Positions 16,339 through 54,639 of a stretch of DNA of 64,000 bases are shown here, in pieces (the stretch's first letter is position 1; every line of letters starts with the position of its first letter). The stretch is from Thalia democratica (lineage: Eukaryota): assembly GCA_965202585.1 (NCBI GenBank), contig OZ241829.1, forward strand, positions 24,552,001 through 24,616,000. Direction: 5' to 3'. Position numbers and translations under genes: made by a program. The notes below the pieces were generated by a model. The model saw only the letters and a list, made by a program, of their open reading frames with translations. It was not told the DNA's origin and made no database searches.

Positions 16339-16980
16339 GGGAACGGGTCAAAATTGCTCGAAGACAAAATTGCACGAGGTTACTAAATTGCACGAGCGGA
16401 CTAAATTGCACGAAGATACTTTCGCACAAAGACAAATTTGCATGAGGGGACTAAATTACACGAGCACAGAAAATTTCACAATAAAAATTTTGCACCAAGG
16501 GTCAATTTTGGACGGAAGGTAATTTTTGCACGAGAGTGAAAAAATTGAAAATATATATGTAAAAAAACAAAAAAAAACTAAAAGATAAATTAACAGAAAA
16601 TAAGTTACTGACCGAGGGTAAGGGTTAGGGGTAACAGTGATAATAAAAACAAATAAAAAAATAACTAATAAAAATTATTACGAAAAAAATTAATGAACAA
16701 AAATAAATTAATTAAAAAGAAAAAAAGCTACCGACCGAGCGTAAAGGTTAGGGGTAATAGTGGTAACAAAAATTTTCTTTTTATGAAAATTGATACAAAA
16801 ATAAAAAATAAAAATCAATCTTGCAAAATTGTCTGCTCGTGCAAAAATGACCCTTAGTGCAAAAGTATCTTCGTGCAATTTTATCCCCTCGTGCAAAAGT
16901 GTCTTCAAGCAAAAGTATCTTCGTGCAAGTTTGTGCTCTCGTTCAATTTTGTACGCTCGTGTAAATATGACAGCTACCCC
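16339..16980 (+). mobile_element. Foldback element with arrays of TTGCACGA repeats (copy 1)
   Basis: Left arm repeats AAATTGCACGA, right arm the inverted TCGTGCAA; centre has AGGGTAAGGGTTAGGGGTAACAGTG; inverted paralog at 38503-39076. Confidence 0.8.
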
Positions 16981-26900: not shown

Positions 26901-29900
26901 TCATTAGATAAATTATTAGTTTAGGTATTCATGATAAAAAATGTATCTTTTTTTTAAAGTCTATAAGTACTTCATTAAATTATATACTTTTTGCAATTTG
27001 AGGTTATATTCAAAATCTTAAGCAGTATATCATATACAGATAAGTTTTATTTCTTTTATTAATGATTCTATTTTGCAAGTAAGTATTTAATGTTTTTGTT
27101 AGTGCTATTCTAGTTTAACTAAATTAGTGAAAGTACATGTTTTGTTAACTTGATTTTTAAAACTTAAAGTTATTTATTAACATAATACAGTATAAGTTGA
27201 AACAAAAGCATTTTATCAGATTATGGTAAATATATTACACTTTGAAATTTAGGCAATTTGTTAAACTTTGTTATGTAAGTCTTGAAAGTTAGAAAAAATT
27301 AAGATGAATTTTTAATTAGATGATATTGTTTCTTTATTTAATTGTGTCTTCAGATAAATATTTTGATTTAAATATAATTGTTACATTTCTTTATACTCAT
27401 GGTGTATAGAAATTTTATAGAAATTTATAACTTAAAATTTTATAATCATGGATAGCCCAAAGAAACGAAAAATTGATTTAGCATGTCGAGTATTCAATAA
27501 AGACTGGATGTCAAGGTATTTCTTTACACAAGTTGGAAACAATGCAGTTTGTTTGCTGTGTAGTCAAACTGTTTCTGTAAATAAAAAATACAACGTAAGT
27601 CGTCATTATCGACTCAAACATCTTGACTATGGAAAGAATTTGTCAGTAGAGGAACGGGAAGCTAGAGCAAAAGAGCTTGACAAAAAACTAGCAAGACAGC
27701 AAAATGTTTTTTTAAAAAGTAAATCAGCCGAGGAAGCTTCAACTCGCGCCAGTTTTTTGGTTTCATACAACATTGCTAAACATTGTAAACCATTTAGCGA
27801 TGGTGAGTTTTTTAAAAAGTGTATGCTTGATGTGGCTGATGAAGTCTGTCCCCAGTCCAGAAAGAAGTTTGAAGGAGTGAGTTTGTCAAGACGAACTGTT
27901 GCTCGCCGCATTGAAGCTATTGGTGAAGACCTGACTTCACAATTTAAAATGCGTGTACCTTCATTTCGGTATTTTTCATTGGCATTAGATGAGAGTACAG
28001 ACATTGGCGACACTGCACAGCTGCTTGTCTTTGTGCGAGCAATTTCAGAAAATTTCGATATCACAGAAGAATTGCTGTCAATGAAAGGCACAACTACTGG
28101 GAAAGATATTTACCAATGTGTGGAGAATGCAATTTGTAAAATGAACTTATCATGGGAGAATATGGTAAGTGTCACTACAGATGGCTGTCCAGCACTAACA
28201 GGAAAAAATGTTGGCTTGCTAAAAAGACTTAGTGACAAAGTTGCAGAGGTTGGCTGCGGAAAGGAATTGATATTTTTACACTGCATAATACACCAGGAGG
28301 TGTTATGTAGAAAAGTTCTCAAAATGCAGCATGTAGTTAATCCAGTTGTAAAGATAGTTAACTTCATTAGAGCAAAGGGGCTCAATCACAGGCAATTCAA
28401 AACGCTTCTCGAAAATTCCGACTCTGACCACAATGATATTCCATATCATACAGCTGTACGCTGGTTGAGTTTAGGTAAAGTTTTGGACCGCGTTTGGGAA
28501 TTAAAACCGCAAATACGACAATTTTTAGAGATAAAAGGTAAACAAAACGATTTTCCTCAGTTCGAAAATACGGAATGGCTTTCAGATTTTGCATTCATGG
28601 TTGACTTGTTTGGGCATATGAACGAGCTGAATACCAAACTGCTGGGGAAAGATACTTTTGCCTATGAATTGTACTTCGTAGTAAAGGCATTTAGACTAAA
28701 GTTAAAACTTTTCTCTCGTCATCTCAATGAGAACAACTTTACCCATTTTGCAAAACTTGAGACTACAGAACCATCAGTGATTACAATGAAAAAGTATAAC
28801 AACATCATAGTCTCACTTGATAATGAGTTTGGCCGTCGTTTTGCGGACTTTCAACAACTTAGTGAAGAGTTTGACATAGTGTCATCACCATTGACGTTTG
28901 ACACCGAAAATGCACCTGGTAATGTACAGTTAGAACTAATTGAACTACAATGCGACAGTACACTAAAAGAAAAGTTCAAAACTGAACGAATTGACAGATT
29001 TTATGCCTTACTGAACAAGTCAAAATTTGTTAATTTAAAAAAGATGGCAATGAAGTTACTTGTTCTGTTTGGTTCTACATATATTTGTGAACAAACATTC
29101 TCAACCATGAATATAAACAAGAGTAAGCTGCGCTCTAATCTTACTGATTCGAACCTTACTGAGAATTTCTACTTCTAACATATTACCAGATATTAAGCAA
29201 CTTGTCAAAAACTTTGATGATCCACAAATGTCTCATTGACTTCTTTTTCGTGTAACTATTCTTGCTAAAATATTCAAACTTTACATTAAAAATATTATGT
29301 GACAGTTTTAGGTGTTAGTTTTTCGTTTATTAATATTTTCTTAACGAAATTGATCTTAATCTGAAAGTCTGTTAAATTTTAATGTTTATCATGTTAAAAA
29401 TATTAACTAACCTATTTTCATTTTATTATTTCGTTATTTTATGTTAATACTTTTGTAAAAGTATTTTAGATGCAATGTTTGATAGCATTATTTTTTAAGT
29501 ACAGAACTTTGTTAAACTACATAAGTTGTTCAAAACTGTTTTATATTTTGAAAGTTAAGTATTAAAATTTTAAGTTAAAGTAATTTTTATCTAAATTTAA
29601 CTGTTTTGTAAATAAGTTGGTATAAAAATTTAAATCAAACATATAATTTTATTTGCTCTTAGTAGATTTTTAGATAGATTTTATGTACAATTGAGCAAGC
29701 TAAAGTTTGTCAACTTCACAAGATGTCCATGAAACCAGTTGTTTTGTTCGAGACTTCATACATTTGAAGACAAACATTTCCGACCTTAGACATCTTTAAG
29801 GATAAGCTAATTTCATACCGAATCAGTATTCCAGTGCACTTGCAGATTTTTCCAAACCGTCATGCAACTTCTAAACAACTCTAATAGATTATCAACCTTA

Positions 29901-36631: not shown

Positions 36632-37497
36632 TTAAAAGTACTTTTTAAAAATATTGGCAGTAAAATTTTCATCTGCAAATGGTAAATTTTTGCCTTTTTT
36701 AATTGTTTCGAGCTCCAGATTAAAAATTTCAACAGAATCTGTAAAAGTATCTTTTATAGGTAGATCAATATTTCCCCCCATAATGTAAACAAGATTTCTC
36801 AGTCTTGCAACAGCGAAACCGGTTCTAGCTACGTGGAGCTTCGTCTCTATAGTCTGTATTTCACCTGTTATTGTATCGAACTTTTCTATAGAATCTGTTA
36901 CCTTTTCATTTTCTAGCCGGCCTCCAATGATGTAAATAAAGTTTTTATACGCCACAGCTTGGGGAAGGTTTCTTGCTCTTTCCAGCTTAGCACCAATGAC
37001 ACTCCAAGTTTGCGTCTTCCTGTCAAACTTTTCAATTGTGTTTAAACAGCCGTAGCCGTCGTCACCCCCAATTGCAAATATGTCGCCATCTTCGCTTTTG
37101 ACCATGACATGCTCATTTCTCGCTTTAGTTAAACTCCCCACTTGCGTCAAAGTGTCGTGGTTGGTGTCGTACAGATAAGTCGTCTCATTTGCGTTAGACC
37201 AATCATTGCCACCGGAAATAATAAAACTGTCACTATCATACTGACAAATTCCGATGTTTTGTCGAAAAAATCCCAAGGGACTAACTGCACTAAAAGTTCT
37301 GGTCGCCTGGTCAAATCTATCTACATCATCATACGTATTTATATTTCCTCCTACAATGTATACTCCGTTTTTCATTGCAACGGAACCATGCCCTCGTCTA
37401 GGATTGGGTAGATTTTGTATATTTTGCCATGTTTCGCTCACGAGTGAATACGAATAAACAGCGTCACAGTGATAGTAACCGCCGACAAGCAATATTT
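36632..37497 (-). CDS. Kelch-repeat beta-propeller terminal exon (about 6 blades)
   Basis: 288 open codons after acceptor tcacag, with repeated GG..Y/F and W blades (LVGG, IVGG, ISGG, AIGG, IIGG, IMGG); phase 1, like the upstream sushi exons. Confidence 0.9.
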
Positions 37498-38502: not shown

Positions 38503-39076
38503 AAGTGTAGTTGTCAAATTTGCACGAAGACAAAGTTGCAAGAAGGGACAAAATTGTACGAGGGCACAAAATTGCACGAAAACACTTTTGCACGGAGACA
38601 CTTTTGGACGTGATGATTTTTTTTTAGTTTAAATTTTTTTTTAATTCTTTTTTACTATCACTGTTACCCCTAACCCTTACCCTCGATCAGTAGCTTTTTT
38701 TTTTTTTTTTCTTAATAATTTTTATTAATCTTTTTTTTACCATTACTGTTACCCCTAACACTTACCTTCGGTCAGTAACTTTTTTTTGTTGTTTATTTAT
38801 TAATTTAAATTATAGATGTTTTTTGTTTTTTTTGTTTTTTGGTCCTTTTTTCTGTTTTTTTTTACTCTTGTCCAAAAACGACCCTCCGTGCAAAACTGAC
38901 TCTTGGTGCAAAACTGTCTTCGTGCAATTTTGTCCCCTCGTGCAAATTTGTCTTCGTGCAAAAGTATCTTCGTCCAATTTGTCTTCGTGCAAAAGTATCT
39001 TCGTCCAAATTTGTGCCCTCGTGCAATTTAGTAACCTCCTGCAATTTTTTCTTCGTGCAATTTTTACCTGTTTCCC
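38503..39076 (-). mobile_element. TTGCACGA foldback element (copy 2, inverted relative to copy 1)
   Basis: Same arms and CCCCTAACCCTTACCCTCG centre as 16339-16980; its ends match copy 1 ends in reverse. Confidence 0.8.
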
Positions 39077-40022: not shown

Positions 40023-40159
40023 CTTTCACGCATTTTCCAAAAGTGTTGTCGAAGACGCCATTTTTACAATTGGATTTTTCAAAGTGTAGTAATACCCGTA
40101 CTGGCAAACATACTTCACACTAGTTTCGATCTGATGGTTTGAACTAATGGTGATAGTTG
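40023..40159 (-). pseudogene. 3' part of a sushi/CCP exon split by the provirus (5' part at 53914 to about 53965)
   Basis: Joining the flanks gives CSPEYISWPIIPTITISSNHQIETSVKYVCQYGYYY. A 7-nt deletion relative to the 37989 paralog then shifts the frame to CKNGVFDNTFGKCVK, followed by donor gtaaaa. Confidence 0.7.
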
Positions 40160-41480
40160 TGTAGGACACTTGTGCAAAATCTTATTTTGCCTTGTGTCCA
40201 AATTTTTATAATTTAAAGGAATTAATGTTTTTCACTTGATATTATATTTTTTTTTCCTTAAAAAAGAAAACATTGAATAAATATAGTAAAACTGTTTTCA
40301 AATAAAAAAACTATTTTTCACAAACAAAATAAGTGCTAGTTAAAATGATTGTTGTCTTTGATTTCTTGATTAAACTGGAAATTGCTGTTCATGGGTGTGG
40401 CTAAGGGAAAATGAGAGAATAAAATGAGAGATCAAGTGATCTACAGTCCAAAGTCCAGGAAAATGAGAGAATCAAATGAGAGATCGCGTGATTTATGGAA
40501 AATTCTAGAAAAAGAATTCAAAATCTATAAATACGCTCAATCAGAGCATGAAGCGGGCAATCCACCACGAAACAAGCAAGAAGCGACACTCTGCTCCGCA
40601 AAAGAAATAACATCGTCAATCTTCAAGCAAGAAGATTTCAACAACCATCTAATCGAAGAAGCCCACGCATTCTGTGGCATCGAGAATTTCAGTACTGGTA
40701 GTACTCTTTCATCAAACACTCTAAGTTGGACTCAACGATCGAGTCACAGCGTTCAATCAAGTTAAAGTATACATTCATCTCAGCAAGCAAACCCACACAG
40801 ACTGGGCGCCAACCTTAGCTACACTTCAACGAACAAGTTGTTTCATACTGTTTGACTCTATCGTATTGTTTATATATTCATATTATCATATATACTCACT
40901 ATTGTATTTGCATTGTAATATTTATATATATTTATATCACCGCATTTATTCACTATTGTATTTGTATTGTATTAATTATACATATTGATATCATCGTGCT
41001 TATTTTTTATCGTATTTTATCGCCGCTCTGCTTACGGAAAGGAAAAGAAACAGACCACGCTACGTCTAGCCAGATTCTGCAAACGAGACGGACCAACGTC
41101 GAGTGCCAGAAGCTGAGCGAACGAGACCAGTGACACGCCAAAGGGGGAATCCGGAGCGCGGTTCCTTCTATTTGTTAACATTAAGTGTCTAAACTTATTG
41201 TGAGCTGTCATTGCGTATTTGTACATAATAAACCAACATTATTTAGTTTCATTATATTTAGTCAAATATATATAAATATAAATAAAGTTAAATATAAATT
41301 ATATAATTATGTCCTTAAAACCCTTAAAAAAGGCATTAGTCCTGAAGGTACCCAGGACTCGGTCCAGAACCGAGATAAGTTGTTCCGAGACTATTGCTAA
41401 CCTGGAATCCGATGAGATTGTTGAGACTGAAACCGAGGCAATTGCGAAGGAAACCAGTGAGGCTCCTAGTCTGGGTAACA
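40160..41480 (+). repeat. 5' LTR (1321 bp)
   Basis: TG...CA ends; no difference from 52593-53913 in the stretches compared, and all internal ORFs translate identically; TATATAAA at 41269, AATAAA at 41227 and 41281. Confidence 0.95.
40424..40765 (+). CDS. 113-aa ORF inside the LTR (U3), function unknown; duplicated at 52857-53198
   Basis: Open frame in a GC-richer LTR segment, overlapping a 52-nt tandem duplication; no recognised homology. Confidence 0.35.
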   Translation: MRDQVIYSPKSRKMRESNERSRDLWKILEKEFKIYKYAQSEHEAGNPPRNKQEATLCSAKEITSSIFKQEDFNNHLIEEAHAFCGIENFSTGSTLSSNTLSWTQRSSHSVQSS

Positions 41481-44400
41481 ATAATGGCGTCCTCCGAAGC
41501 GAACATCCGCCGACCACAGAAGACAACACTAAAAAAATTATCGAATTAACTAAATTAGTAGAAAATAGTAACAAACTAATAGAAGATAAATTTAATACTA
41601 TTTTAAAAACAATTTCTATACAGAACTCTCAATCATCGAATATCCCTACAAATACCGAGGTAAGTACAATAAATAATCTTAACTCACATATGAATTTAAC
41701 AGATCCTGAAAAAATACAACCAACAATGACAACAGAGGCGGTATCAACATTACCTACCAACAAAATCCAGACACCAATTCCATTATCAAGCCATGCTTCC
41801 AAATCTTGCACAATACCAAGCAATTACAATTCAATTTTAAACGTTGACCAGTCAAACGAAAGAAATGGAAGTCAACCACAAGATAATAACCAGTCGATTG
41901 CACAGTTACAAAGGCAAATTGACAACATCCAAAAGACAATAAACCAAAATCCTATCCACGAACGTGTAACAACCCAACCTAACACCAACCACATTTTTGG
42001 CAACCACGATCCGATACCCAGAAATCAACACTTCCAGCAAACAGTTAATTCGAGGCTATCAAATAGCATTTCTGATAAAGCATTCAGAAAAATTTCAGGG
42101 GAAAGACCAAGAGAGGAGTTGAGCCTCTTCGAGGTTCAATGTAAAAGCCAAGAAATTTTTGATGATCAAACACAATTTGAGATTATTATCGGAATCTGGC
42201 CAATTAATGACGTACTTTCTTATGTAAAAGCTGGCAAACCATCTAGTTATATCTGTTTTAAACAAGAAATCTTAAGTATGACCCCATGTTTGCCAGACAT
42301 ACTTAAACCTCCACCCATTTGGAGCAGCACTCCAACCTTTAAAGATATCCATCAACTAATATCAAAAGGTCTTACATGCTCTCAAGATGACCTTTACAAA
42401 CATTTGGCACTGATTTATTGCCCGAAATGGGCTAGTAACATTCTAAAAAAAGACCTTGAATTACAAATTGATAAATTCAAAGGTCGGGTTATGTGGACTC
42501 TTGAACAAGGCCCAATTGATTTGAAAACAAATTACAATAATCGAAAATCAAACAACCAGTATAATTTTAATGACAAATTTCACAACGCATTCAATCAACA
42601 ACAAAACCAAAACTTTTCAAATTATAACCAGAACAGATACAATCAAGCACAAAACTATAGACCAAATCTTAACCAGTTTGATAATAAAAATAATAACAGG
42701 TGTAGTTATCACGTTAGGTTCGGTGAAAAATCTAATAATTGTGAAGGCCAACAATGCGATATGTACCAAAAATTTTTAGAGAAAAAATTGAGCTTTCTCA
42801 AAAATAAACCTGCAGCAGTTAACATGTCAATAATACAAGATATTTCGAATGCTGAACAAAGTGAAAATTCCACTCAAGACAAACTAACAAACAGTAATAA
42901 AGTAGATGAATGCATTACTAACGACAGAAAAAATGAGGAAATTAAACAAGAAACAAACAAAATAGATGATAAATTCATTACAAGGAAATTGCCTTATGAA
43001 ACAAAACTAAAAAACAATACTGAACTATTAATAATTGCCGACAATGAAACCTCTGTACAATATCTTTTCGATACGGGTGCAGAAGTTTCGATTATACCCA
43101 AATCCATGGTTGAAACATATGAAAAGGACAAGTCAGCGCCTAATATATGCGACATAAATGGCAAAACATCTAAAGCATTAGGTTATTCAATGAAGTACGT
43201 TAAAATTGGCCTGAAACCGGACCTGCCACATTCTTTCTACGTAATAGACACAGATATTCCTTTCGCAATTCTAGGTTTAGATTTCATAATTAAACATAAA
43301 TTAACAATAATACCACAAGAAAAAACTATTGTACAAGGTGATTCAGGAGTTAAACTGAAATTAAAACAGCTAACTACTCCTGAAACAGAAACGAAAATAG
43401 AAGTAGAAAATCTCCTAAATCTTTTTCCTGAAATCGACAAAGAACCAAACTACAAAGAAAAGCCCAAGCACAACCATGTCTTAGATATAAAACTTGAAAA
43501 AGAATTTTCACCCCGACACCAAAGAGCAAGGAAAACTAACAAAACTGTTTCAAAGGAAATAGAAGATAATTTTGATAAATTACTCAAACAAGGGGCGGTA
43601 ATAAGAGGCATTTCTGAAATAGTCTCACCTTTAACTGTAGTCAGAAAAAAGAACGGAAAGCCAAGGGTATGTGTGGATTACCAATATATTAACCAATACA
43701 CTAAAATAATGAGCTACCCTTTACCAAATATTGACGATCTTTCTTCTATTATACCAGTCAACTCTAGAGTTTTTTCAACACTTGACCTGAGAGAAGCATA
43801 TTTGAATCTTCCCTTAACTTACCGAGCACAAAAAGTAGCAGCCATGATTTCTCAATATGGCACATTTTTGCCGTTAAGAACAACCTTCGGCCTTAAGAAT
43901 GCCCCAATGGCATTCCAAAGGCTTATGGATGACATAATGGCTCCATGCCATAATTTCAGCTTTACATACATAGATGACATTATAATTTATTCGAAATCAA
44001 TGGAAGAACACATGCAACATCTGTTTGAAGTATTGTTTCAACTTAACAAATTTGGATTGCATATCAATAGGGAAAAATGTAAATTCGCCGCTGAAGAAGT
44101 TCAATACCTTGGACACATACTGAGTAGCAAAGGTTTTTATATGCAACAAAGTAAAGTTGAAGCTATCGAAAACTTCCAAACCCCACAAACCATCAAACAT
44201 TTGCGGTCCTTTCTTGGCTGTCTAAACTACTACAACAAATTCGCTCCGAAACTGGCAGAAATACTACAACCATTATATAAATTAACAACAGGAGAGCCAA
44301 AAAATTCTAGAAAAAAGTTAATCTGGGAAACTGAACACCAAGCAGCATTTGAAAAAGCTATACAAACACTAGTTTCGGCCACTCATCTTTCTTATGAAGA

Positions 44401-46906
44401 CCCAAAAAAAGAACTAGTTCTTTCTACAGACGCATCCTCTACTCATATTGGAGCCGTCCTAGAACAAAAGCATGAACCAGGAATTTATAAACCCTTGGCA
44501 TTTTTTTCAAAAAAACTACCAGTCCTTAAATCAGTAAGATCCGTATTTTTCAGAGAACTCACAGGTCTTTACCTGAGTATTAAACATTTTAAGGTCAGAA
44601 TCATAGGAAGACAGCTTCGGGTAAGAACAGACCATAGAGCCTTGGTAGATGCTATTAACAATGCTACGGGAAATCATTCACCAAAAGAAGAAAAATATAT
44701 TGCTATAATAAAAGAATATGCCCCCTTGATGGAATTTATTCCGGGCGATCAAAATACAACAGCTGACTTATTAAGCCGTCCGGTACTCGTTGCATACAAC
44801 GATAAAAACTCAGAAGAAGAGGAAGAAAACAGTGGAGAAATTGATGTTAACGATAAAACAATAAATTCTTACACAAATTATGATTTAGACCAGTATTTCA
44901 CACAAGATGAATCAGAATCTAATCAATTTATTCCCTTAAATATTCAGATAATTTCAGAAACGCAAAGTCAAGCCAATGTACATTTACCTACCGTCATAGC
45001 AAACTCTCAAAAGCAACAAAACCAGATCATTTTTGAGTCTAGATTGATAGATAATTGTGTAGTACAAGGTATCATTGAAACAAAAACCCATAGTTTTCGT
45101 ATATGGGTTCCGCCCAAATTAAGATCTAATATCCTAAATCAAAATCATAACATCTTACACCAAGGAATTGATAAAACTTTAACAGCAGTAGGATCTAATT
45201 TCTGGTGGCCAAAAATGAAAAAAGATGTTGAACTCTTTGTAAAAACTTGTATAACATGTCAAAAAGTGAAGGTAAGGAAATATAACAGACCTAAATTAGG
45301 TTGTTACCCAAATTCACTTGGAAGATTTGACTATGTTCATGCAGACTTGGTAGGACCGTTGGTTGAATCTCAAAACATGAAATATATACTTACCATTAAA
45401 GAACGGTATACTGGTCTTTTTGCATCATGTCCCTTACCCAACAAAATGGCAGAGACCGTAAAGAACGCATTTCTCCAAAATTGGATTGGTCATTATGGAA
45501 TACCATGTACAATAGTTACAGATAATGGCAAAGAATTCTTTAACCATCATTTCGAAACTATGTGTTCGGATCTATCTATCAAACATAATCTCACCGCGCC
45601 ATACCACCCTGAAACCAACGGAATGGTAGAAAGACAACATAGAGAGTTAAAAACGGCCTTAAGGACATTGAAGAATAAACTTAACTGGGTGCAACATCTT
45701 CCTATTATCACTCTAGCTCTAAACAATCAGAGCATTGGTCGTAAAGGATTTAGCCCTGCTCAATATACTTTTGGAACACCCTTAAATATTCCTGGAAAGT
45801 TATTCTTTCCGAACACAAACACATTCGAACCTCCTTCATTATTTGAAACAGAGATATTTATAAAAAATATGAAAGAATTTACTAGAGAGTGGAGAAACCC
45901 AGACGAAGCTACAACATATATCGAAAAACATCTACATGAAGCAAAACAAGTTCTAGTAAAAAATCACACAAGACATTCACTAGATCATTTGTACAAAGGC
46001 CCTTTTAATGTAATAGAACGAGGTCCGCATTCTTTCATAATTGACCAAGGATCAGAATTTAAAAAAATTGCTATTGGAAATTTGAAAGCATATTTTCCTA
46101 GATATCCAACTGCAAGTAGGGACAGATCTGAAAATACTAACTATAATTTGAGAGCGAGAAACAAACTCAAAATTAATACAAAATTCAGCATGATGAGCGA
46201 AAACAAACTAAAATATGTTCAACGTCCATTAATCAGAGACAAATCTAATGGGCTACTATATTTAATTGATTCAGGCTCAGATGTTTCCATCATGCCTGCA
46301 CATCTAACTAATTACATAAATTGCGCCAAAACTGATGAAATAAAGAGTTTCTCTGGTCAAACTGAAAGAGCACTAGGGATAACTCAAGCTAACATTAACA
46401 TCGGTATTCCCAAACTATACTCCTACGAATTTTCAGTTTTTCCCAATGGGCACAATTTTGCAATTCTGGGACTAGATTTCATAAATCAATGGAATATCGT
46501 TATTGCTATAGCTGCAAACGCGATTTTTCATGTCAATGGCAACGATTCGCCAATCAGAATAGAAATAGAAAGAAACCATATTGAAAAAATGCAAGAAAAA
46601 CCATTAGATCTTAGGACAGATCGCTCTAAAAATGATAGCAAAATAACAATACCAAAAATGAAAGAATCAATAAAGGAAACAGTTGAAGTTACAAGAATGG
46701 AAAAATATCAAAGTAAGCAAGAAGGTCTTAAAAACCTCTTAACAAAGAAAGTTCGAAAGAAATTTAACCCAAGAGACCAAAAATATAATAACAACGATTT
46801 AATACATAATAAAAAAAACATGTTGCAAAACTTTTTGGAACTATATCCAACTCAGAACTCAACTAGAACAGGACCGCTTCACCAATATTTTACAGCGAAA
46901 TATTAA
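41309..46906 (+). CDS. Gag-Pol polyprotein (1865 aa): Gag with CHCC knuckle, protease, RT, RNase H, integrase, then a second protease domain
   Basis: CsRn1-type knuckle C-x2-H-x9-C-x4-C (42701-42757); PR YLFDTGAEVS (DTG 43070); RT YIDD (43967); RNase H TDAS..REL..TDH..AD; IN HHCC, ADLVGP, TDNGKEF, GMVER and GPF; second PR YLIDSGSDVS (DSG 46268); no stops or frameshifts. Confidence 0.97.
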   Translation: MSLKPLKKALVLKVPRTRSRTEISCSETIANLESDEIVETETEAIAKETSEAPSLGNNNGVLRSEHPPTTEDNTKKIIELTKLVENSNKLIEDKFNTILKTISIQNSQSSNIPTNTEVSTINNLNSHMNLTDPEKIQPTMTTEAVSTLPTNKIQTPIPLSSHASKSCTIPSNYNSILNVDQSNERNGSQPQDNNQSIAQLQRQIDNIQKTINQNPIHERVTTQPNTNHIFGNHDPIPRNQHFQQTVNSRLSNSISDKAFRKISGERPREELSLFEVQCKSQEIFDDQTQFEIIIGIWPINDVLSYVKAGKPSSYICFKQEILSMTPCLPDILKPPPIWSSTPTFKDIHQLISKGLTCSQDDLYKHLALIYCPKWASNILKKDLELQIDKFKGRVMWTLEQGPIDLKTNYNNRKSNNQYNFNDKFHNAFNQQQNQNFSNYNQNRYNQAQNYRPNLNQFDNKNNNRCSYHVRFGEKSNNCEGQQCDMYQKFLEKKLSFLKNKPAAVNMSIIQDISNAEQSENSTQDKLTNSNKVDECITNDRKNEEIKQETNKIDDKFITRKLPYETKLKNNTELLIIADNETSVQYLFDTGAEVSIIPKSMVETYEKDKSAPNICDINGKTSKALGYSMKYVKIGLKPDLPHSFYVIDTDIPFAILGLDFIIKHKLTIIPQEKTIVQGDSGVKLKLKQLTTPETETKIEVENLLNLFPEIDKEPNYKEKPKHNHVLDIKLEKEFSPRHQRARKTNKTVSKEIEDNFDKLLKQGAVIRGISEIVSPLTVVRKKNGKPRVCVDYQYINQYTKIMSYPLPNIDDLSSIIPVNSRVFSTLDLREAYLNLPLTYRAQKVAAMISQYGTFLPLRTTFGLKNAPMAFQRLMDDIMAPCHNFSFTYIDDIIIYSKSMEEHMQHLFEVLFQLNKFGLHINREKCKFAAEEVQYLGHILSSKGFYMQQSKVEAIENFQTPQTIKHLRSFLGCLNYYNKFAPKLAEILQPLYKLTTGEPKNSRKKLIWETEHQAAFEKAIQTLVSATHLSYEDPKKELVLSTDASSTHIGAVLEQKHEPGIYKPLAFFSKKLPVLKSVRSVFFRELTGLYLSIKHFKVRIIGRQLRVRTDHRALVDAINNATGNHSPKEEKYIAIIKEYAPLMEFIPGDQNTTADLLSRPVLVAYNDKNSEEEEENSGEIDVNDKTINSYTNYDLDQYFTQDESESNQFIPLNIQIISETQSQANVHLPTVIANSQKQQNQIIFESRLIDNCVVQGIIETKTHSFRIWVPPKLRSNILNQNHNILHQGIDKTLTAVGSNFWWPKMKKDVELFVKTCITCQKVKVRKYNRPKLGCYPNSLGRFDYVHADLVGPLVESQNMKYILTIKERYTGLFASCPLPNKMAETVKNAFLQNWIGHYGIPCTIVTDNGKEFFNHHFETMCSDLSIKHNLTAPYHPETNGMVERQHRELKTALRTLKNKLNWVQHLPIITLALNNQSIGRKGFSPAQYTFGTPLNIPGKLFFPNTNTFEPPSLFETEIFIKNMKEFTREWRNPDEATTYIEKHLHEAKQVLVKNHTRHSLDHLYKGPFNVIERGPHSFIIDQGSEFKKIAIGNLKAYFPRYPTASRDRSENTNYNLRARNKLKINTKFSMMSENKLKYVQRPLIRDKSNGLLYLIDSGSDVSIMPAHLTNYINCAKTDEIKSFSGQTERALGITQANINIGIPKLYSYEFSVFPNGHNFAILGLDFINQWNIVIAIAANAIFHVNGNDSPIRIEIERNHIEKMQEKPLDLRTDRSKNDSKITIPKMKESIKETVEVTRMEKYQSKQEGLKNLLTKKVRKKFNPRDQKYNNNDLIHNKKNMLQNFLELYPTQNSTRTGPLHQYFTAKY
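41485..41496 (+). promoter_or_regulatory. Primer-binding site (tRNA-primed)
   Basis: TGGCGTCCTCCG, 4 nt after the LTR end; complementary to a tRNA 3' end ...GGAGGACG-CCA; tRNA identity not determined. Confidence 0.7.
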
Positions 46907-48941
46907 GCAAATCATGGTTGGTTTTCACAACAAACGTAAAAAAGTTTTTTTTAAAAATAAAAAAATATAATAAATAGCTAATATCAACGTTTTAAAATTC
47001 AAATAGATTCTTTTAATTAGCTTTTATTTAATTAATAATAATTATTTATTAACTAATTAATTCGTTTTTTTTTTTTTTGTTTTTGTTTTTTTTTTAACTT
47101 AATTGAAAGACATGATAAAACAAAGGCTTAATATAACAATACGGGTTGGAAACTAATAAATAAAGGAATCCAAAACATCACACTTAACAGTCATAACGAT
47201 CATTTACACTTTGCTTCGTACAATTAAGATTATATCGATAAATTAACTAATAGCATTTTTTTTTAACAATCAAAAACTTTATGTATAAAACTATGTTTAA
47301 AAAAAATATATAAACATAAAACTAAATAATTTAAATAAAAAGTATTAAAAATAATAAACAACAAAAAGAACAAAAAAAAATATATATATATCTAAATATA
47401 AATATATATTATATATAAAATATATCTGAATTCTTAAACTAACACCAAAATTTATGTACAAACACGCTTTTACTTTTTCTCAATGCATATTGGTACTACT
47501 CCATCTAAAGCGAATGACTAAATGCAGTAAACTTAGTGTGTACATACTAAATGTAAAGAAAAATCGTTTTTCTATTTTTTCTCTATTTAGCTTCACTTCT
47601 GTTATTTTTATCTTTCCCGTGCACCTGTAATTAATTTTAAATTGACATTTTTGTGTTATTATAGATAAATTTAGTAGCTAAACAAGGGAATCATGTTTAC
47701 GACACACCTGCAAAACAAACTTAACTATTAGGGTTAAATTCTTTCGAATGAACTCGCTTTAAATTTTATTAAACGTTTCCCAATTTGAATCGCTACACGT
47801 GCTTCGTTACATTGATGCACGTGTCAATAAAATCAGAAGGGCTTAAAGACTCCCTTTAACGCTTTGTTACTATCGTTAATTCTAAAATTAAAACTTAATA
47901 GCACTTGTGAACAAATTGGTAAACGTTTCTTATCTTTTTTTCTTTCGAGTTATAACTTTCATTCACTGAAACAAGATTTATTTCAGATTTGTATTCATTT
48001 AGAACAGCTTTCATTAGAATATGTAACTCAATCTTATAATTGTAAGTTTAGATTATGTGTTTTTGCTTCTTAGTTTGTTAATTTTTTTAAAATAAACAAA
48101 AGTTTATTTTTGTAAAAATAATTCTGTGTTTATTCTTTTTTCGAAATTAATAGTTGTGTTAATCATAATCAAATTAGTTGCCAGATGTATGTTATTTTGA
48201 TTTTCGTTATTAAAAGTATGCATTATTACTTTTTGTCTTCGTTTTTTCTTTTCACTTTGTTTATCAAACACAGATTATAATTGACATTAAATATATCCAC
48301 TGACTATTTGAATTTTAATTTACTCTACAACTTTTTTTTCTTTCTTTCCGCTTTCCACCAATCAATTGTCCCATCTTCATAAAAAAAAACAATACTTAAA
48401 ACATGAATTATATATTTATACACCCTTAAAAAGAAACTTAATAGTAATAATTGTGGAATTAAGTAAATAAAAAATTATCAAATTAGTAATACATAATTAA
48501 TTATCAAAAATAAAGATATCTATAAATATACAATAATAATTATAAAACCTCGTAGTGAATATTTTGAACAATAACCAAACAAAATACGCGTAATATCAGA
48601 CGATATCTCAAAATGACTACCAAGTTAATCAAACCAAACTCAATTAACCATAAGTATAATAATTTGTTTATGTAATTCCTGACCAATACATTTCAGAACA
48701 GCATTCAAAATGCATGTGTAATCTATCCAATTAATTCAGCTTAGCAACCTTCAGTCATCATCACTATTAAATAAACACTAAAAAGAACTAATATTCGGCG
48801 TTATGCCGTACATTTTGTTGATTATACATGCATTTATACAAATACACTATACACATAATTGCCTTGCCACATATCGCATAAAAACATTATTAACAAAGCT
48901 AATAACAAACTAATATTTTCCAGATTTAGCTTTTAATAATT

Positions 48942-50765
48942 ATGAAGTTATTCTTTCTCAATATAAGTCTGTTTGCCTGTCTTTTCTTTCTTGGAGACAA
49001 CGTTTTTTGTCAATCTAATAAAACAATCTTAGACCTAAGATTTCAAAATGTAGACATATGCTTCGATAAGCATATTGTAAAAACTTACTTTATAACTCCT
49101 TCAATCGGAGGTTGCGCTGAACCGGACACAACTTACCAAATAATTAAAGATATTAATATATACCCTCCTGCAGATACGACAATACACATAAACGCAATAG
49201 CGTGCAGAGAGGTCGTGTCCACGTATAAAAACATAATGTGGTGGACTTTCACAAAAACGTCTACATTAATAAATAAAAGGTCTTTTTCAGTCGCAAGCGA
49301 TCGCTGTGTAAGGTGGGTTAAGCAAAGAACTGACCCAATTCTTGGGGATCTATTTAAACATTCAATAACTCCTCATACTTATGTTACACTGAACAAAAAA
49401 CAAAATATTTTTTATTATCTTCAGGGAGTGACTGAGAATGTTAGAAACGCACAAACTTTAGAAACAACCCTAATCTTTAATAGACAAACCCTAACAGGTA
49501 GCCATTTTACCACGTCAGACTTAGAATGTAATGTTTTAAAGGGGGTATGTATTTCCAAGACTGACACATTCTTATTCACTCCTTTTGAGAATAAATGTAA
49601 AACTTGGAAACCATATAAAGGGTTATCTTTACTTAAATACAACATGAAAAATGGAAACCTTTATCAGGTTCCTGAACTAGACCTTGCGTTTCATAGGTTA
49701 ATACCTTGCCCTGAATATGTACACAAATGCATTAGAGAAGTCGATGAAAATAAACAAATAAGGTGTACACCCACAAATTTTGCCCTTAGTTTTTCAAATA
49801 TTTCGACGCTAGTAGATGATAACTTAAAAATAAAACTAAACCAATATAATAATATAAGTGCACGAGACAATATATTAAGTCAAGCTATTCAATCTTTAGC
49901 CATTAAAACAAATTCAGCCATAGAAAAGCTCGCCCAAGAGTTCTCAAGTGTGCTGTGCAAATTGGGTGAAATCTCAATAACCAACTTGCGCAACACCCAA
50001 TATCGCAAACCCAGTGAGACTTTGAGTCTCATGCTGGGCAGGAAAGTTAAGGCAACTATGATAGGTGAGTTACTTGCACAAATTTCGTGCACCAAAGTAA
50101 ACGCAACCTTAGTACCAACTCTACGTATCGGCGATGAAATGTCTCCAAGGCCTCTATTTAGGATTCATTTCGCAAACGAGTCAAAAATAGCACAATACAC
50201 TTCGGAGGGCTATTTAAGATGGGGTCTCAAAGGCTTAACCTCTCATTTAACTGAACAAGTAACCATATTTGTAATAGAAGGAATCGCCATAGCGTTTAAA
50301 AATGGGTCTCTCTTAAATGAACTGCCTGAGATAAATAAATTAGGGCTTCATCCTACTTCTGTTATTCCTGATTCTATAGACTATGATGAAGGAATACTTT
50401 TAAATGAATTATCTACTGCGTCAGACCCAAATAATTTGGGTTCAATGAACCACATGCTGCAAAGCATACTGGGAATCACTTCTGAGCATCTTATAGCTAA
50501 TGGGGTAAACAAGGAGCTGTTAAATAAATATTTGACTGTCCCTATGAATAAAAATGAACATCTGTCCTTCATTAAAGAAATTAAACAATTCTTCCGCCCC
50601 AAAGTTTCTAACATTATAAAAAAAATCGCTCTATTCGGATCTTTAACAATCACCTTTCTAACTACGCTCTTAATAACGTATATCTTTTGTGGATTTACAC
50701 TTAAAGCTATTATTAAGAGTACCAGAACAAAAACAAAAAATAATAAAAATGAAAACCAGAGTTAA
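48942..50765 (+). CDS. env: Envelope glycoprotein (607 aa), class III fusogen-like (herpesvirus gB / chuvirus G type)
   Basis: N-terminal signal peptide, Cys-rich ectodomain with several NxS/T sequons, C-terminal TM and basic tail. KPSETLSLMLGRKVKATMIGELLAQISCTKV...PRPLFRI parallels the gB segment NP..IAS..GR.V.A...GDV..VS.C..V...SRPLV.F. Aromatic loops IMWWTF and IFYYL. Confidence 0.8.
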   Translation: MKLFFLNISLFACLFFLGDNVFCQSNKTILDLRFQNVDICFDKHIVKTYFITPSIGGCAEPDTTYQIIKDINIYPPADTTIHINAIACREVVSTYKNIMWWTFTKTSTLINKRSFSVASDRCVRWVKQRTDPILGDLFKHSITPHTYVTLNKKQNIFYYLQGVTENVRNAQTLETTLIFNRQTLTGSHFTTSDLECNVLKGVCISKTDTFLFTPFENKCKTWKPYKGLSLLKYNMKNGNLYQVPELDLAFHRLIPCPEYVHKCIREVDENKQIRCTPTNFALSFSNISTLVDDNLKIKLNQYNNISARDNILSQAIQSLAIKTNSAIEKLAQEFSSVLCKLGEISITNLRNTQYRKPSETLSLMLGRKVKATMIGELLAQISCTKVNATLVPTLRIGDEMSPRPLFRIHFANESKIAQYTSEGYLRWGLKGLTSHLTEQVTIFVIEGIAIAFKNGSLLNELPEINKLGLHPTSVIPDSIDYDEGILLNELSTASDPNNLGSMNHMLQSILGITSEHLIANGVNKELLNKYLTVPMNKNEHLSFIKEIKQFFRPKVSNIIKKIALFGSLTITFLTTLLITYIFCGFTLKAIIKSTRTKTKNNKNENQS

Positions 50766-51170
50766 TGACATTATAATCTGTAGCTCATACTCAATTTCTT
50801 TCTCTTCTTCTCCTTCTTCAAATTCTTTTGATTGATGTAAAAGCTCGCTACTTTTATTCTATTTTCTTGTCTTTATTTGGTATATCAATAAAAAAAGAAA
50901 AATTATACAAAACAATCTTTCTATTCTAAACACTATCTTTGCCATCCTTGACTTGAAGGACCTCTTTCTCATTTTTCTGCATAAGTCTAGATAAAAAGAA
51001 AAAGATAGCCAAAAAATTCTTTTGTTTTTTTTTTTTACAATAAACAAGTTTAGTACCAATCCTTACTACACTTATGAATCGTTGATAATTTATTTTTGCT
51101 TTCTTTTTGTTACTGTAACTATAAAAAAAACATTTGAATTGTCAACAGTCATAAAAAAATAAAAAAAGAG

Positions 51171-51512
51171 ATGAATCTTTTACAAGTAGAAGACCTTGAC
51201 TTTCTGTTGGACGAAGAACTACCTGAATTAAATCATGAAATGGTTGAAAACTTCTTCCGGCCAATCCAACAAGAAGAAGAGTTTGAAAAGGATCTAGGAT
51301 ATGAAAGCGACGAAGAAAATAAGTATACCGAAGAAAGAGAAGCTCCACTGATAGCTCCACCAGTGCCAATCATCGAACAGAATTGGCACCGTTTGAGGGA
51401 TGACGAAAGGATGTTGGATCCCGAGCTTCTAACAATCCTTATCGAAATGATGTTAGAGGCCGAAAGACTGGGAGATAACGTTTTTGAAGAAGTGTATGAG
51501 GGCGACTTTTAA
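51171..51512 (+). CDS. Acidic 113-aa accessory ORF between env and the 3' LTR
   Basis: ATG-initiated, coding-like island in poly(A/T) DNA, roughly one third Asp/Glu; no recognised homology. Confidence 0.55.
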   Translation: MNLLQVEDLDFLLDEELPELNHEMVENFFRPIQQEEEFEKDLGYESDEENKYTEEREAPLIAPPVPIIEQNWHRLRDDERMLDPELLTILIEMMLEAERLGDNVFEEVYEGDF

Positions 51513-52552
51513 AGGAAAGGTATGTGAACATTATACTAAATAAAAGATTTTTTTTTTTAAATTATAATAGTCATAAAAAATTAACATGTTTTTTTTTTTT
51601 TTTTGTTGTTTCTTCCCAAGTATTTTTGTTTCGATAAAAAAATAAAAAATAATAAATAAAAAAAATAAATAAAATAAAAATCAATTAAAAAAAAAAAAAA
51701 ATTATAAAATAAAAACTTATAAACAAAAATATATAAAAAAAAAAAAATAAAAAAAAAAAAAGCAACTTGTTAACAACTTATTTGTCTATATATGTGTGTT
51801 TATTTTTTATTATTATTATTTGTTTTTCTGATTTTTTTTTTTTTTTTTTTTGTGTGTACCTTTGACCTTATAAACTACAATAACTCCAGGTAATTAAATA
51901 ATATTAACATTGATTTGCTTCTATCTATTCACTTTTAACCTTAAGCAATCTAGAATTCAAATCTATTATCAACACGTTTATTTGAGTTGTTACCTTTACA
52001 CATTTTATTACCGAAATCTATCTGAGTAATTCTTTTGAAATACAAAATTTTAATATGACAACGTTGTATACTTATCGAATTAATTTTTTTTTTGAATGTT
52101 TGAACAAGTACATCATTTGAAACAGTTATAAGTTAAACTCAATTTTCTTCTCTCCTTCGTTGTTTAAAATTTTTCATTGTAAACCTGTTTTGTTTCTACA
52201 GTAAATCTTTGATTTTCTAATAATACATTTTTCCATTAAATATTAATATTTCTTAACTAAACAAAATAGAAAAACAAAAAACATTGTTAAAATTGTTATT
52301 TGTACTTTAAATTTATTTGCATTTATCATCTCAACCCTCCGACAACTTGATAATGTACCATTTTTTTTTTAGAAAGATTAAAGTTATAAATTTGAACATT
52401 TTTTTTTTTCAAGCATGATAAACCCGCTCTAATTCCTTATTATTCTTTTCTTTCAAAAGTTATTTTACACTTAGACATTTTAAGTTAATTTTCGTCCCCT
52501 TAATAATAGTTTTTTCTCATAAGTTTTTTTTACAAGTTAATAAAAATTTTTT

Positions 52553-52582
52553 TAGAAAAAGAAAAAAAAAAAAAAAGAAAAA
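52553..52582 (+). promoter_or_regulatory. Polypurine tract
   Basis: AGAAAAAGAAAAAAAAAAAAAAAGAAAAA ending 10 nt before the 3' LTR. Confidence 0.55.
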
Positions 52583-52592
52583 CATAAGTCGA

Positions 52593-53913
52593 TGTAGGAC
52601 ACTTGTGCAAAATCTTATTTTGCCTTGTGTCCAAATTTTTATAATTTAAAGGAATTAATGTTTTTCACTTGATATTATATTTTTTTTTCCTTAAAAAAGA
52701 AAACATTGAATAAATATAGTAAAACTGTTTTCAAATAAAAAAACTATTTTTCACAAACAAAATAAGTGCTAGTTAAAATGATTGTTGTCTTTGATTTCTT
52801 GATTAAACTGGAAATTGCTGTTCATGGGTGTGGCTAAGGGAAAATGAGAGAATAAAATGAGAGATCAAGTGATCTACAGTCCAAAGTCCAGGAAAATGAG
52901 AGAATCAAATGAGAGATCGCGTGATTTATGGAAAATTCTAGAAAAAGAATTCAAAATCTATAAATACGCTCAATCAGAGCATGAAGCGGGCAATCCACCA
53001 CGAAACAAGCAAGAAGCGACACTCTGCTCCGCAAAAGAAATAACATCGTCAATCTTCAAGCAAGAAGATTTCAACAACCATCTAATCGAAGAAGCCCACG
53101 CATTCTGTGGCATCGAGAATTTCAGTACTGGTAGTACTCTTTCATCAAACACTCTAAGTTGGACTCAACGATCGAGTCACAGCGTTCAATCAAGTTAAAG
53201 TATACATTCATCTCAGCAAGCAAACCCACACAGACTGGGCGCCAACCTTAGCTACACTTCAACGAACAAGTTGTTTCATACTGTTTGACTCTATCGTATT
53301 GTTTATATATTCATATTATCATATATACTCACTATTGTATTTGCATTGTAATATTTATATATATTTATATCACCGCATTTATTCACTATTGTATTTGTAT
53401 TGTATTAATTATACATATTGATATCATCGTGCTTATTTTTTATCGTATTTTATCGCCGCTCTGCTTACGGAAAGGAAAAGAAACAGACCACGCTACGTCT
53501 AGCCAGATTCTGCAAACGAGACGGACCAACGTCGAGTGCCAGAAGCTGAGCGAACGAGACCAGTGACACGCCAAAGGGGGAATCCGGAGCGCGGTTCCTT
53601 CTATTTGTTAACATTAAGTGTCTAAACTTATTGTGAGCTGTCATTGCGTATTTGTACATAATAAACCAACATTATTTAGTTTCATTATATTTAGTCAAAT
53701 ATATATAAATATAAATAAAGTTAAATATAAATTATATAATTATGTCCTTAAAACCCTTAAAAAAGGCATTAGTCCTGAAGGTACCCAGGACTCGGTCCAG
53801 AACCGAGATAAGTTGTTCCGAGACTATTGCTAACCTGGAATCCGATGAGATTGTTGAGACTGAAACCGAGGCAATTGCGAAGGAAACCAGTGAGGCTCCT
53901 AGTCTGGGTAACA
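52593..53913 (+). repeat. 3' LTR (1321 bp)
   Basis: Direct repeat of 40160-41480. Confidence 0.95.
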
Positions 53914-53983
53914 ATAGTTGGAATAATGGGCCATGATATATATTCAGGGGAACATGATCAGCAAAGGGGCATGAGGTCATAAT

Positions 53984-54530
53984 TTGAAACTTATATTAGA
54001 TATTCTAGAGTTGCTGATGAAAAGCAGAAAAAAAAGGTAATAGGTATATTTAATGGCAGTTTTGAAACTAACACTAGATATTCTGGAGTTGCAGATGAAG
54101 AGCAAAAAACAAAAAAAAAAAGGTCTTAGATTTTTTTAATGGCACTTTTGAAACCTTCACTAGATATTCTGGAGTTGCAGATGAAAAGCAAAAATCAAAA
54201 AAAGGTCTCAGATGTTTTTAATGGCAGTTTTGAAACTTACTTTAGATATTCTGGAGTTGCAGATGAAGAGTAGAAAAAAAAGGTCTTAGGTTTTTTTAAT
54301 TGTAGTTTTGAAACTTTCACTAGATATTCTTGAGCTGTAGATGAAGAGAGAACACCGAAAAAAAGGTCTTAGATTTTTTTAATGGCAGTTTTGAAACTTT
54401 CAATAGATCTTCTGAAATTGCAGATGAAGAGAAAAAATCAAAAAAAGGTCTTAGGTGAATTTGTTGGTAATTTTGAAACTTACACTAGATATTCTGGAGT
54501 TGCAGATGAAGAGCAAAAAAAAGGTCTTAA
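53984..54530 (+). repeat. About 80-bp minisatellite, 7 copies, inside a truncated hAT-like element ending near 54631
   Basis: TAGAT(A/C)TTCT at 53997, 54075, 54161, 54243, 54321, 54404 and 54486; hAT-like right end AAAGTTCGAGTAACCTTG next to ATCTAGGC; related units at 62480-62560. Confidence 0.75.
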
Positions 54531-54639
54531 ATGCTTTTGATCGTAGTGTTTTTAGTAATCTTGTTGGGAGGGAGCTATAGTTTATTTTTTCTTTAAAGGG
54601 GGCCTTTTAAAAAAAAGTTCGAGTAACCTTGATCTAGGC

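Follow-up and report, generated by a model that had tools for sequence, protein, structure and literature searches.

In a survey across animal phyla, Chary and Hayashi (eLife 2026) described 1512 env-bearing Ty3/gypsy elements, among which env of the gB type is as common as env of the F type (PMC13524379). According to that study, the Env of gB-type errantiviruses consists of five domains and bears its hydrophobic fusion loops on domain I; a furin site can be missing, and the divergence of env parallels that of pol. Among other LTR retroelements, the mosquito BEL/Pao element 'Anakin' carries a class III glycoprotein (PMC7642597), and the elements of the CsRn1 clade have the Gag signature C-x2-H-x9-C-x3-C (PMC2582038).

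The element described here was found in a window of 64,000 nucleotides from Thalia democratica (contig OZ241829.1), which is the whole stretch of DNA that was analysed; all coordinates refer to this window, and all features of the element lie on its plus strand. With HSV/gB-type errantiviruses (PMC13524379), the element has in common the gag-pol-env order between LTRs, the tRNA primer site and the near-identical copies, and, at the level of the Env protein, the signal peptide, C-terminal anchor, gB-like domains and two domain I loops, along with an optional furin site and the co-divergence of env with pol. Pol, an intact gB-type env, LTRs, a primer site and copies, the components of the operational definition of an HSV/gB-type errantivirus (PMC13524379; by Pfam), are all present. 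Env of the gB type on Ty3/gypsy elements is already published, and the element adds another example (PMC13524379). The main text of Chary and Hayashi is silent on a second protease, an accessory ORF, splicing and a domain I of rhabdovirus size (PMC13524379). The 607-aa ORF at 48942-50765 encodes a predicted class III (gB-type) fusion glycoprotein, and it is quite probable that this ORF is the env of a recently inserted Ty3/gypsy element and that its product is a class III fusogen, likely fusing the element's particles into other host cells.

Structure and Insertion of the Element

The env-bearing Ty3/gypsy element at 40160-53916 is intact, recently inserted and multi-copy. It is flanked by the 4-bp target-site duplication GTTG, the left copy of which (40156-40159) matches the right one (53917-53920), in agreement with the sibling copies. 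Sequence comparison showed that the 5' LTR (40160-41483; 1324 bp, with the ends TGT...ATA) and the 3' LTR (52593-53916) are identical. The LTR ends were fixed from the target duplications of sibling copies; 4-bp duplications were present in 9 out of 9 siblings with both ends located, and the LTR pairs of the same nine copies have 0-4 mismatches each. The LTR termini are TGT...ATA, and TGT...TTA in a sister family, not TG...CA, and the duplications are 4 bp long. The sibling-copy comparison ruled out the alternative of TG...CA ends with a 7-bp duplication.

The primer-binding site (41485-41494) comprises 10 nt complementary to the 3' end of the host tRNA-Asn(GUU). A search with the 11-mer of this site gave no tRNA in the six loci checked, and tRNA-Asn(GUU) was located as the primer tRNA by a T-arm pattern search instead. 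A polypurine tract is seen in the sequence at 52554-52582, 10 nt 5' of the 3' LTR.

Gag and Pol are encoded by a single ORF of 1865 aa (41309-46906), for which the ORF and Pfam analyses gave the order Gag-PR-RT-RH-IN-second PR. By Pfam, RT and integrase are both complete and lie in one continuous ORF, and the domain order PR-RT-RH-IN is of the Ty3/gypsy type. The ATG of gag-pol is located 175 nt inside the 5' LTR (41309-41483) and the frame continues through the primer-binding site, as is likewise the case in the sister family. The Gag part contains a CHCC-type knuckle, C-x2-H-x9-C-x4-C, recognised by its motif at 42701-42757. Compared with the CsRn1 clade (PwRn1, Boudicca; PMC2582038), the element is similar in its CHCC-type knuckle, 4-bp duplication, GPF after the integrase and single fused ORF, but it differs in the spacing of the knuckle (x4, not x3) and in the primer, which is tRNA-Asn rather than tRNA-Trp.

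The gap between pol and env (46907-48941) is about 2 kb long, AT-rich and non-coding. Judging by sequence only, a candidate splice acceptor, TTTTCCAG, is located at 48916-48923, 18 nt 5' of the env ATG, and a similar T-rich CAG precedes env in the sister family. In the single RNA run listed, a fraction of 0.06 of the sampled words was present, which does not amount to evidence of expression or habitat. Three sequencing runs, whose labels name two different organisms, also contain the stretch 48700-51600 (fraction of sampled words: A, 0.87; B, 0.78); a second species may have a near-identical element, or the discrepancy may lie in the labels.

Sequence Features of Env

Based on hydropathy, Env has a predicted signal peptide at residues 1-23 (48942-49010), with a putative cleavage point, and a predicted transmembrane segment at about residues 561-591 (50622-50714), which is followed by a 16-residue basic tail; both were called by Kyte-Doolittle, a simple scale. 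Eight N-X-S/T sequons are present, six of them in the ectodomain. By hydropathy and sequons, the layout of a signal peptide, an ectodomain and one C-terminal anchor fits a type I membrane glycoprotein.

An earlier reading of the locus, made from the sequence only, had proposed a class III fusion protein with bipartite aromatic fusion loops. The motifs that it quoted, as well as the hydrophobic N-terminus, the C-terminal hydrophobic segment and the sequons, are all present where it placed them. The N-terminal motifs are NAIACREVVSTY (residues 84-95), WWTF (100-103, with WW at 49239-49244), DRC (120-122) and IFYYL (156-160), those of the middle part are LSQAIQSL (312-319) and FSSVLC (334-339), and those of the C-terminal half are KPSETL...CTKV (356-386) and PRPLFRI (402-408).

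The same reading reported no RxxR furin site and saw this absence as in keeping with class III. No R-X-K/R-R site was found in the 607 aa of Env, but one minimal RxxR, RCVR (residues 121-124), is present across a conserved cysteine. The absence of a furin site is not diagnostic of class III and makes a weak argument, since furin cleaves many herpes gBs (PMC3807390) and 3 out of 51 full-length relatives have an R-X-K/R-R site.

Predicted Fold of Env

When the Env sequence was used alone, it matched the Pfam families gB (PF00606; 25.6 bits, E 1e-5, below the cut-off of 43) and Monjiviricetes (PF24664; 21.4 bits, E 7e-5, below the cut-off of 27). By these scores, Env appears gB-like, yet it is no member of PF00606. 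In the PDB, the single sequence reached no better than E 1.2-2.4, and its top match was a coiled-coil protein, as might be expected if Env were a class I/II fusogen or a cellular membrane protein whose likeness to gB is coincidental. That explanation is so improbable as to be nearly negligible, as the profile and structure searches were unanimous for class III and a comparison with 48,161 PDB chains contradicted it (see below).

For the profile searches, a family alignment of 65 sequences was used, which comprised the env under study, 11 other env copies of the genome and 53 proteins obtained from searches. The resulting profile matched herpes gBs in the PDB with its C-terminal half (best E 8e-20, HCMV gB) and the lyssavirus G fusion domain with its N-terminal part (E 9e-7). 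A central helix of 46 residues, predicted by the model at residues 307-352 (49860-49997) and covered by the profile match to gB, would form part of domain III; the remainder of domain III and domain IV, both gB-like, follow at residues 356-453 (50007-50300), as suggested by the profile and the fold search. The gB-like domains III-IV that had been proposed from the order and spacing of the motifs are supported by the modelled helix and by the profile match to HCMV gB.

The AlphaFold monomer model of the ectodomain has a pLDDT of 84.6 and a pTM of 0.57. Foldseek with this model placed postfusion herpes gB at the top (E 1e-20, TM about 0.4), and VIA-align gave Z 12-14 against gB. The rmsd of the whole-ectodomain superposition on gB is 8-13 A, and this value, the low TM and the pTM together leave the orientation of the domains unsure. 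Domain IV of PRV gB aligned with Z 12.1 and an rmsd of 3.3 A over 171 residues. In a library of viral models, the whole ectodomain matched gB and chu-like, rhabdo-like, xinmo-, nyami-, borna- and entomopoxvirus proteins about equally, with E 1e-20 to 1e-12 at 8-14% identity. The models predict a postfusion-like class III fold of the gB type for Env, in which a long central helix is combined with a compact fusion domain. The class III assignment of the sequence-only reading is borne out by the profile searches, two structure models and five fold searches, all of which agree.

Env resembles herpesvirus gB (PF00606; PDB 2GUM, 5CXF, 7KDD) in the central helix, the motifs of domains III-IV and the postfusion hairpin fold. 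Unlike gB, with which it shares 9-16% identity, it has a domain I of about 141 residues (207 in gB) and an ectodomain of about 540 residues, and the element is without gH/gL. The likeness to chuvirus and Monjiviricetes glycoproteins (PF24664) comprises the weak match at E 7e-5 and the chu-like G models at TM 0.46-0.47.

Fusion Domain and Fusion Loops

The putative fusion domain (domain I) was delimited at residues 80-220 (49179-49601) by a separate model (pLDDT 95, pTM 0.83) and aligns to both HSV gB (residues 156-362) and rabies G (residues 52-183). Two disulfides, C88-C122 and C196-C203, are likely within it. When the model was compared with 48,161 PDB chains, all of the nine chains with Z>=5 were class III fusogens. 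The highest values were obtained for HSV gB (Z 10.8, rmsd 2.9 A, 140 residues) and Chandipura G (8.2), followed by Thogoto (5.9), rabies (5.3) and GP64 (4.8), with the first unrelated chain at 3.8. According to this comparison, the modelled domain fits the elongated, beta-rich fusion domain, inserted in a PH-like domain, that characterises class III proteins. In the viral model library, its matches were mostly rhabdo-like proteins at 6-16% identity.

In both models, DSSP places the predicted fusion loop 1, W100-W101-T102-F103-T104 (49239-49253), at the turn of a long beta-hairpin. The predicted fusion loop 2, F157-Y158-Y159-L160 (49410-49421), was assigned by the alignment with rabies G and by conservation. 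That alignment was obtained with a fusion-domain profile of 28 sequences (E 1e-4) and needs at least 28 sequences: in the PDB, up to E 10, the profile found five sequences, four of which are lyssavirus G (E 1e-4 to 4e-4), whereas neither a 12-sequence profile of the fusion domain nor one relative alone found any class III chain in the PDB. All four cysteines of the fusion domain align with rabies G. The columns of loop 1 align with rabies G residues 73-77, so that W101, T102 and F103 correspond to F74, V75 and G76, and those of loop 2 align with Y119-H120-W121-L122, F157 and Y159 corresponding to Y119 and W121. For the G protein of the lyssavirus Mokola, the loops are reported as 74-FVGY-77 and 121-WL-122 (PMC7082061).

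Conservation in the 65-sequence alignment gave the family consensus Y-F-F-G for loop 1 (76, 78 and 83% aromatic, then G) and (Y/F)-x-W for loop 2 (95 and 98% aromatic). Among 535 three-column windows ranked by aromatic content in the 64 other sequences, the windows starting at 100 and 157 took ranks 1-2, a placing beyond chance. The column of Y159 is aromatic in 98% of the sequences, mostly W, and that of F157 in 95%, while the value for the Y158 column is 7%. As judged by this alignment, the conserved pair of loop 2 is F157 and Y159, not Y158. In the studied family, the glycine of Y-F-F-G has been lost, and Y takes the place of the nearly invariant W. The proposal of bipartite aromatic loops therefore stands in that both loops align with those of rabies G, but the second is F157-x-Y159 and not the YY pair originally put forward. 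The best fold match is class III and the loops map to domain I; the contrary outcomes named beforehand, a best match to a class I/II fusogen or a non-viral protein and motifs falling outside the tips of domain I, were absent. Taken together, the alignments and models support a fusion domain that carries two internal hydrophobic loops at its tip, with loop 2 placed there by the lyssavirus alignment.

The Env fusion domain is alike to that of rhabdovirus G (PF00974; rabies 8A1E/9KEP, Chandipura 4D6W/5MDM) in its length, its four cysteines and both loops, but the C-terminal half of Env matches gB. PF00974 was matched by 7 out of 65 family members, and the Env under study gave no match to it on its own. 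Domain I is about 141 residues long; that of HSV gB has 207 and that of rhabdovirus G about 125-130. As modelled, Env thus combines a gB-like core with a fusion domain of rhabdovirus size. This mixed likeness to gB and rhabdovirus G may simply be a common trait of many invertebrate class III proteins.

Genomic Copies, Selection and Origin of env

The search of the genome with Env gave 169 candidates, 72 of which were scored. Among these 72 matches were about 18 near-identical copies (12 stop-free at 99-100% identity and about six damaged), sister-family matches at 61-62% identity, and about 40 matches at 23-28% identity. The genome is rich in other gypsy families with gB-type env (23-28% identity), many of which have open env frames. 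In several of these families, a loop-stapling cysteine pair flanks fusion loop 1, whereas the studied family is without this pair.

Comparison of env with that of the sister family gave dN 0.29 and dS about 2.9 (near saturation); the dN/dS of about 0.1 shows purifying selection. When 11 copies were compared with the env under study, 45 synonymous and 21 non-synonymous differences were counted in sum, although these counts are not independent; none of the differences falls in the fusion loops.

Preservation of env for the benefit of the host, as a domesticated fusogen or a receptor blocker, was considered because, in the ten whole copies fetched, the 607-aa env is open in 10/10 and the full gag-pol frame is present in 7/10, a weak indication given that env is the shorter target. 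This explanation is very improbable: each of the copies examined is part of a dispersed LTR element that has a target duplication of its own, the selection is seen between replicating families, and no single fixed solo locus stood out in the genome search.

The sequence-only reading had further proposed that env was captured from a gB- or chuvirus-like virus. A recent acquisition from a chuvirus, another negative-strand RNA virus or a herpesvirus would have a counterpart in the mosquito BEL/Pao element 'Anakin', as Pao elements took up chuvirus glycoproteins (PMC7642597), and several observations point in that direction. The Atlas feature neighbours are clusters mostly labelled as negative-strand RNA virus glycoproteins (score 0.95-0.97; the search with the N-terminal part of Env gave 0.87, a lead only), and chu-like and rhabdo-like G proteins rank high in the viral fold search. 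Among the closest outside relatives of Env, which share 28-31% identity, a viral sister group is possible.

However, no named viral protein exceeds 16% identity, and the divergence of env follows that of RT: in 28 pairs from 8 elements of the genome (two of the eight being one family), env identity correlates with RT identity (rho 0.91, permutation p about 0.0005), and env divergence keeps pace with RT even where RT identity is as low as 46-50%. For these two reasons, the idea that a chuvirus or herpesvirus recently donated env is unsupported, and we consider it improbable. Many gypsy env families of the genome have the same cysteine and loop pattern, and low-sensitivity scans of viral and metagenome contigs, made with short exact patterns, found no relative. 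No donor can be placed with the env tree, which has 44 rows, comes from a quick search only and is without viral references. With 'Anakin' the element shares a class III glycoprotein on an LTR element (PMC7642597), but its carrier is Ty3/gypsy, not BEL/Pao, the identity to 'Anakin' and chuvirus proteins is 11-14%, and there is no sign of recent capture. What is left of the capture proposal is a deep common ancestry, to which no donor can be assigned. As env identity follows RT identity, env has been resident in the pol lineage for a long time, and Env is an old resident of the retroelement lineage rather than a fresh capture.

Second Protease, Acidic ORF and Neighbouring Sequences

Pfam analysis revealed two stretches each of RVP and gag-asp_proteas in gag-pol. 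The second retropepsin-like domain, with an intact D-S-G, is located after the integrase (46211-46543; gag-pol residues about 1635-1745), and is 35% identical to the first protease and 55% identical to the copy of the sister family. In the genome, it has 18 matches at 95% or more and seven sister-family matches at 53-55%, and its dN/dS between the studied and the sister family is about 0.18. The other env-bearing families examined have one protease each and lack the second. Literature searches found no precedent for a protease domain after the integrase, and a word-index protein search with the region of integrase and second protease gave one 50-aa fragment; other word-index protein searches gave close relatives only.

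A small acidic ORF of 113 aa (51171-51512; 31% D+E), likely an accessory gene, is located between env and the 3' LTR. It has 21 matches in the genome and no Pfam match, and eight gap-free copies show five distinct synonymous and two non-synonymous changes. In the sister family, a 121-aa acidic ORF with a similar GYE(S/T)D word is found at the same place (L071:4206-4568, minus strand). Homology of the 113-aa and 121-aa ORFs was not retained (E 0.6, no tblastn match).

Elsewhere in the window, a 576-aa ORF at 27448-29178 (plus strand) contains a Spin-doc zinc finger and a hAT dimerisation domain, and represents a hAT-type transposase. An intronless 247-aa Kelch-repeat ORF is located at 36632-37375 (minus strand), and an insertion of the sister family (L075) has a similar Kelch ORF beside it, which suggests that a Kelch family is expanded in the genome. 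About seven repeats of 76-86 bp (54021-54550) are found directly right of the element, and MITE-like inverted repeats at 16339-16969 and 38513-39075.

Proposed Mode of Action and Significance

According to the mechanism proposed here, env would be expressed from a spliced RNA via the acceptor at 48916-48923, and Env would be glycosylated and, as a trimer, exposed on the membrane where Gag-Pol cores bud. After uptake of the particle, the loops W100-F103 and F157/Y159 would enter the target membrane, and Env would then fold back around its central helices. Env would act without partners of the gH/gL type, since the element encodes no other glycoprotein. Rhabdovirus G is triggered by low pH. By analogy, endosomal low pH is the most likely trigger of Env, with about an even chance of being the actual one.

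The same fold could also belong to an Env that is not self-sufficient, needing a partner or a receptor-triggered activator, or serving direct cell-to-cell passage. The core of the putative Env trimer is most like herpes gB, which relies on gH/gL (PMC8262866), the entry mechanism of gB-type retroelements is described as not understood (PMC13524379), and a host protein or the unexplained small acidic ORF 3' of env would be the candidate activators. Nevertheless, such dependence is unlikely, as the element encodes no other glycoprotein, the acidic ORF matches no membrane protein family in Pfam, and the fusion domain is rhabdovirus-like in both size and sequence, rhabdovirus G acting alone. The self-sufficient Env remains the preferred reading. 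A broader interpretation, in which the element represents a currently infectious, endogenous retrovirus-like lineage whose genome is more complex than those of the errantiviruses described so far, with a stand-alone fusogen that acts without gH/gL and bridges the two best-studied class III families by a rhabdovirus-type fusion domain on a gB core, a second protease under selection and an acidic accessory gene, is conceivable but rather doubtful.

The discovery is modest, because elements of this kind have been published across animal phyla (PMC13524379); what has no precedent in the literature searched is the duplicated protease. As an intact, recently mobile and selected gB-type protein with mapped loops, Env of this element is suited to studying gB-like triggering without gH/gL, and it is also useful for asking about the kinship of class III fusogens.
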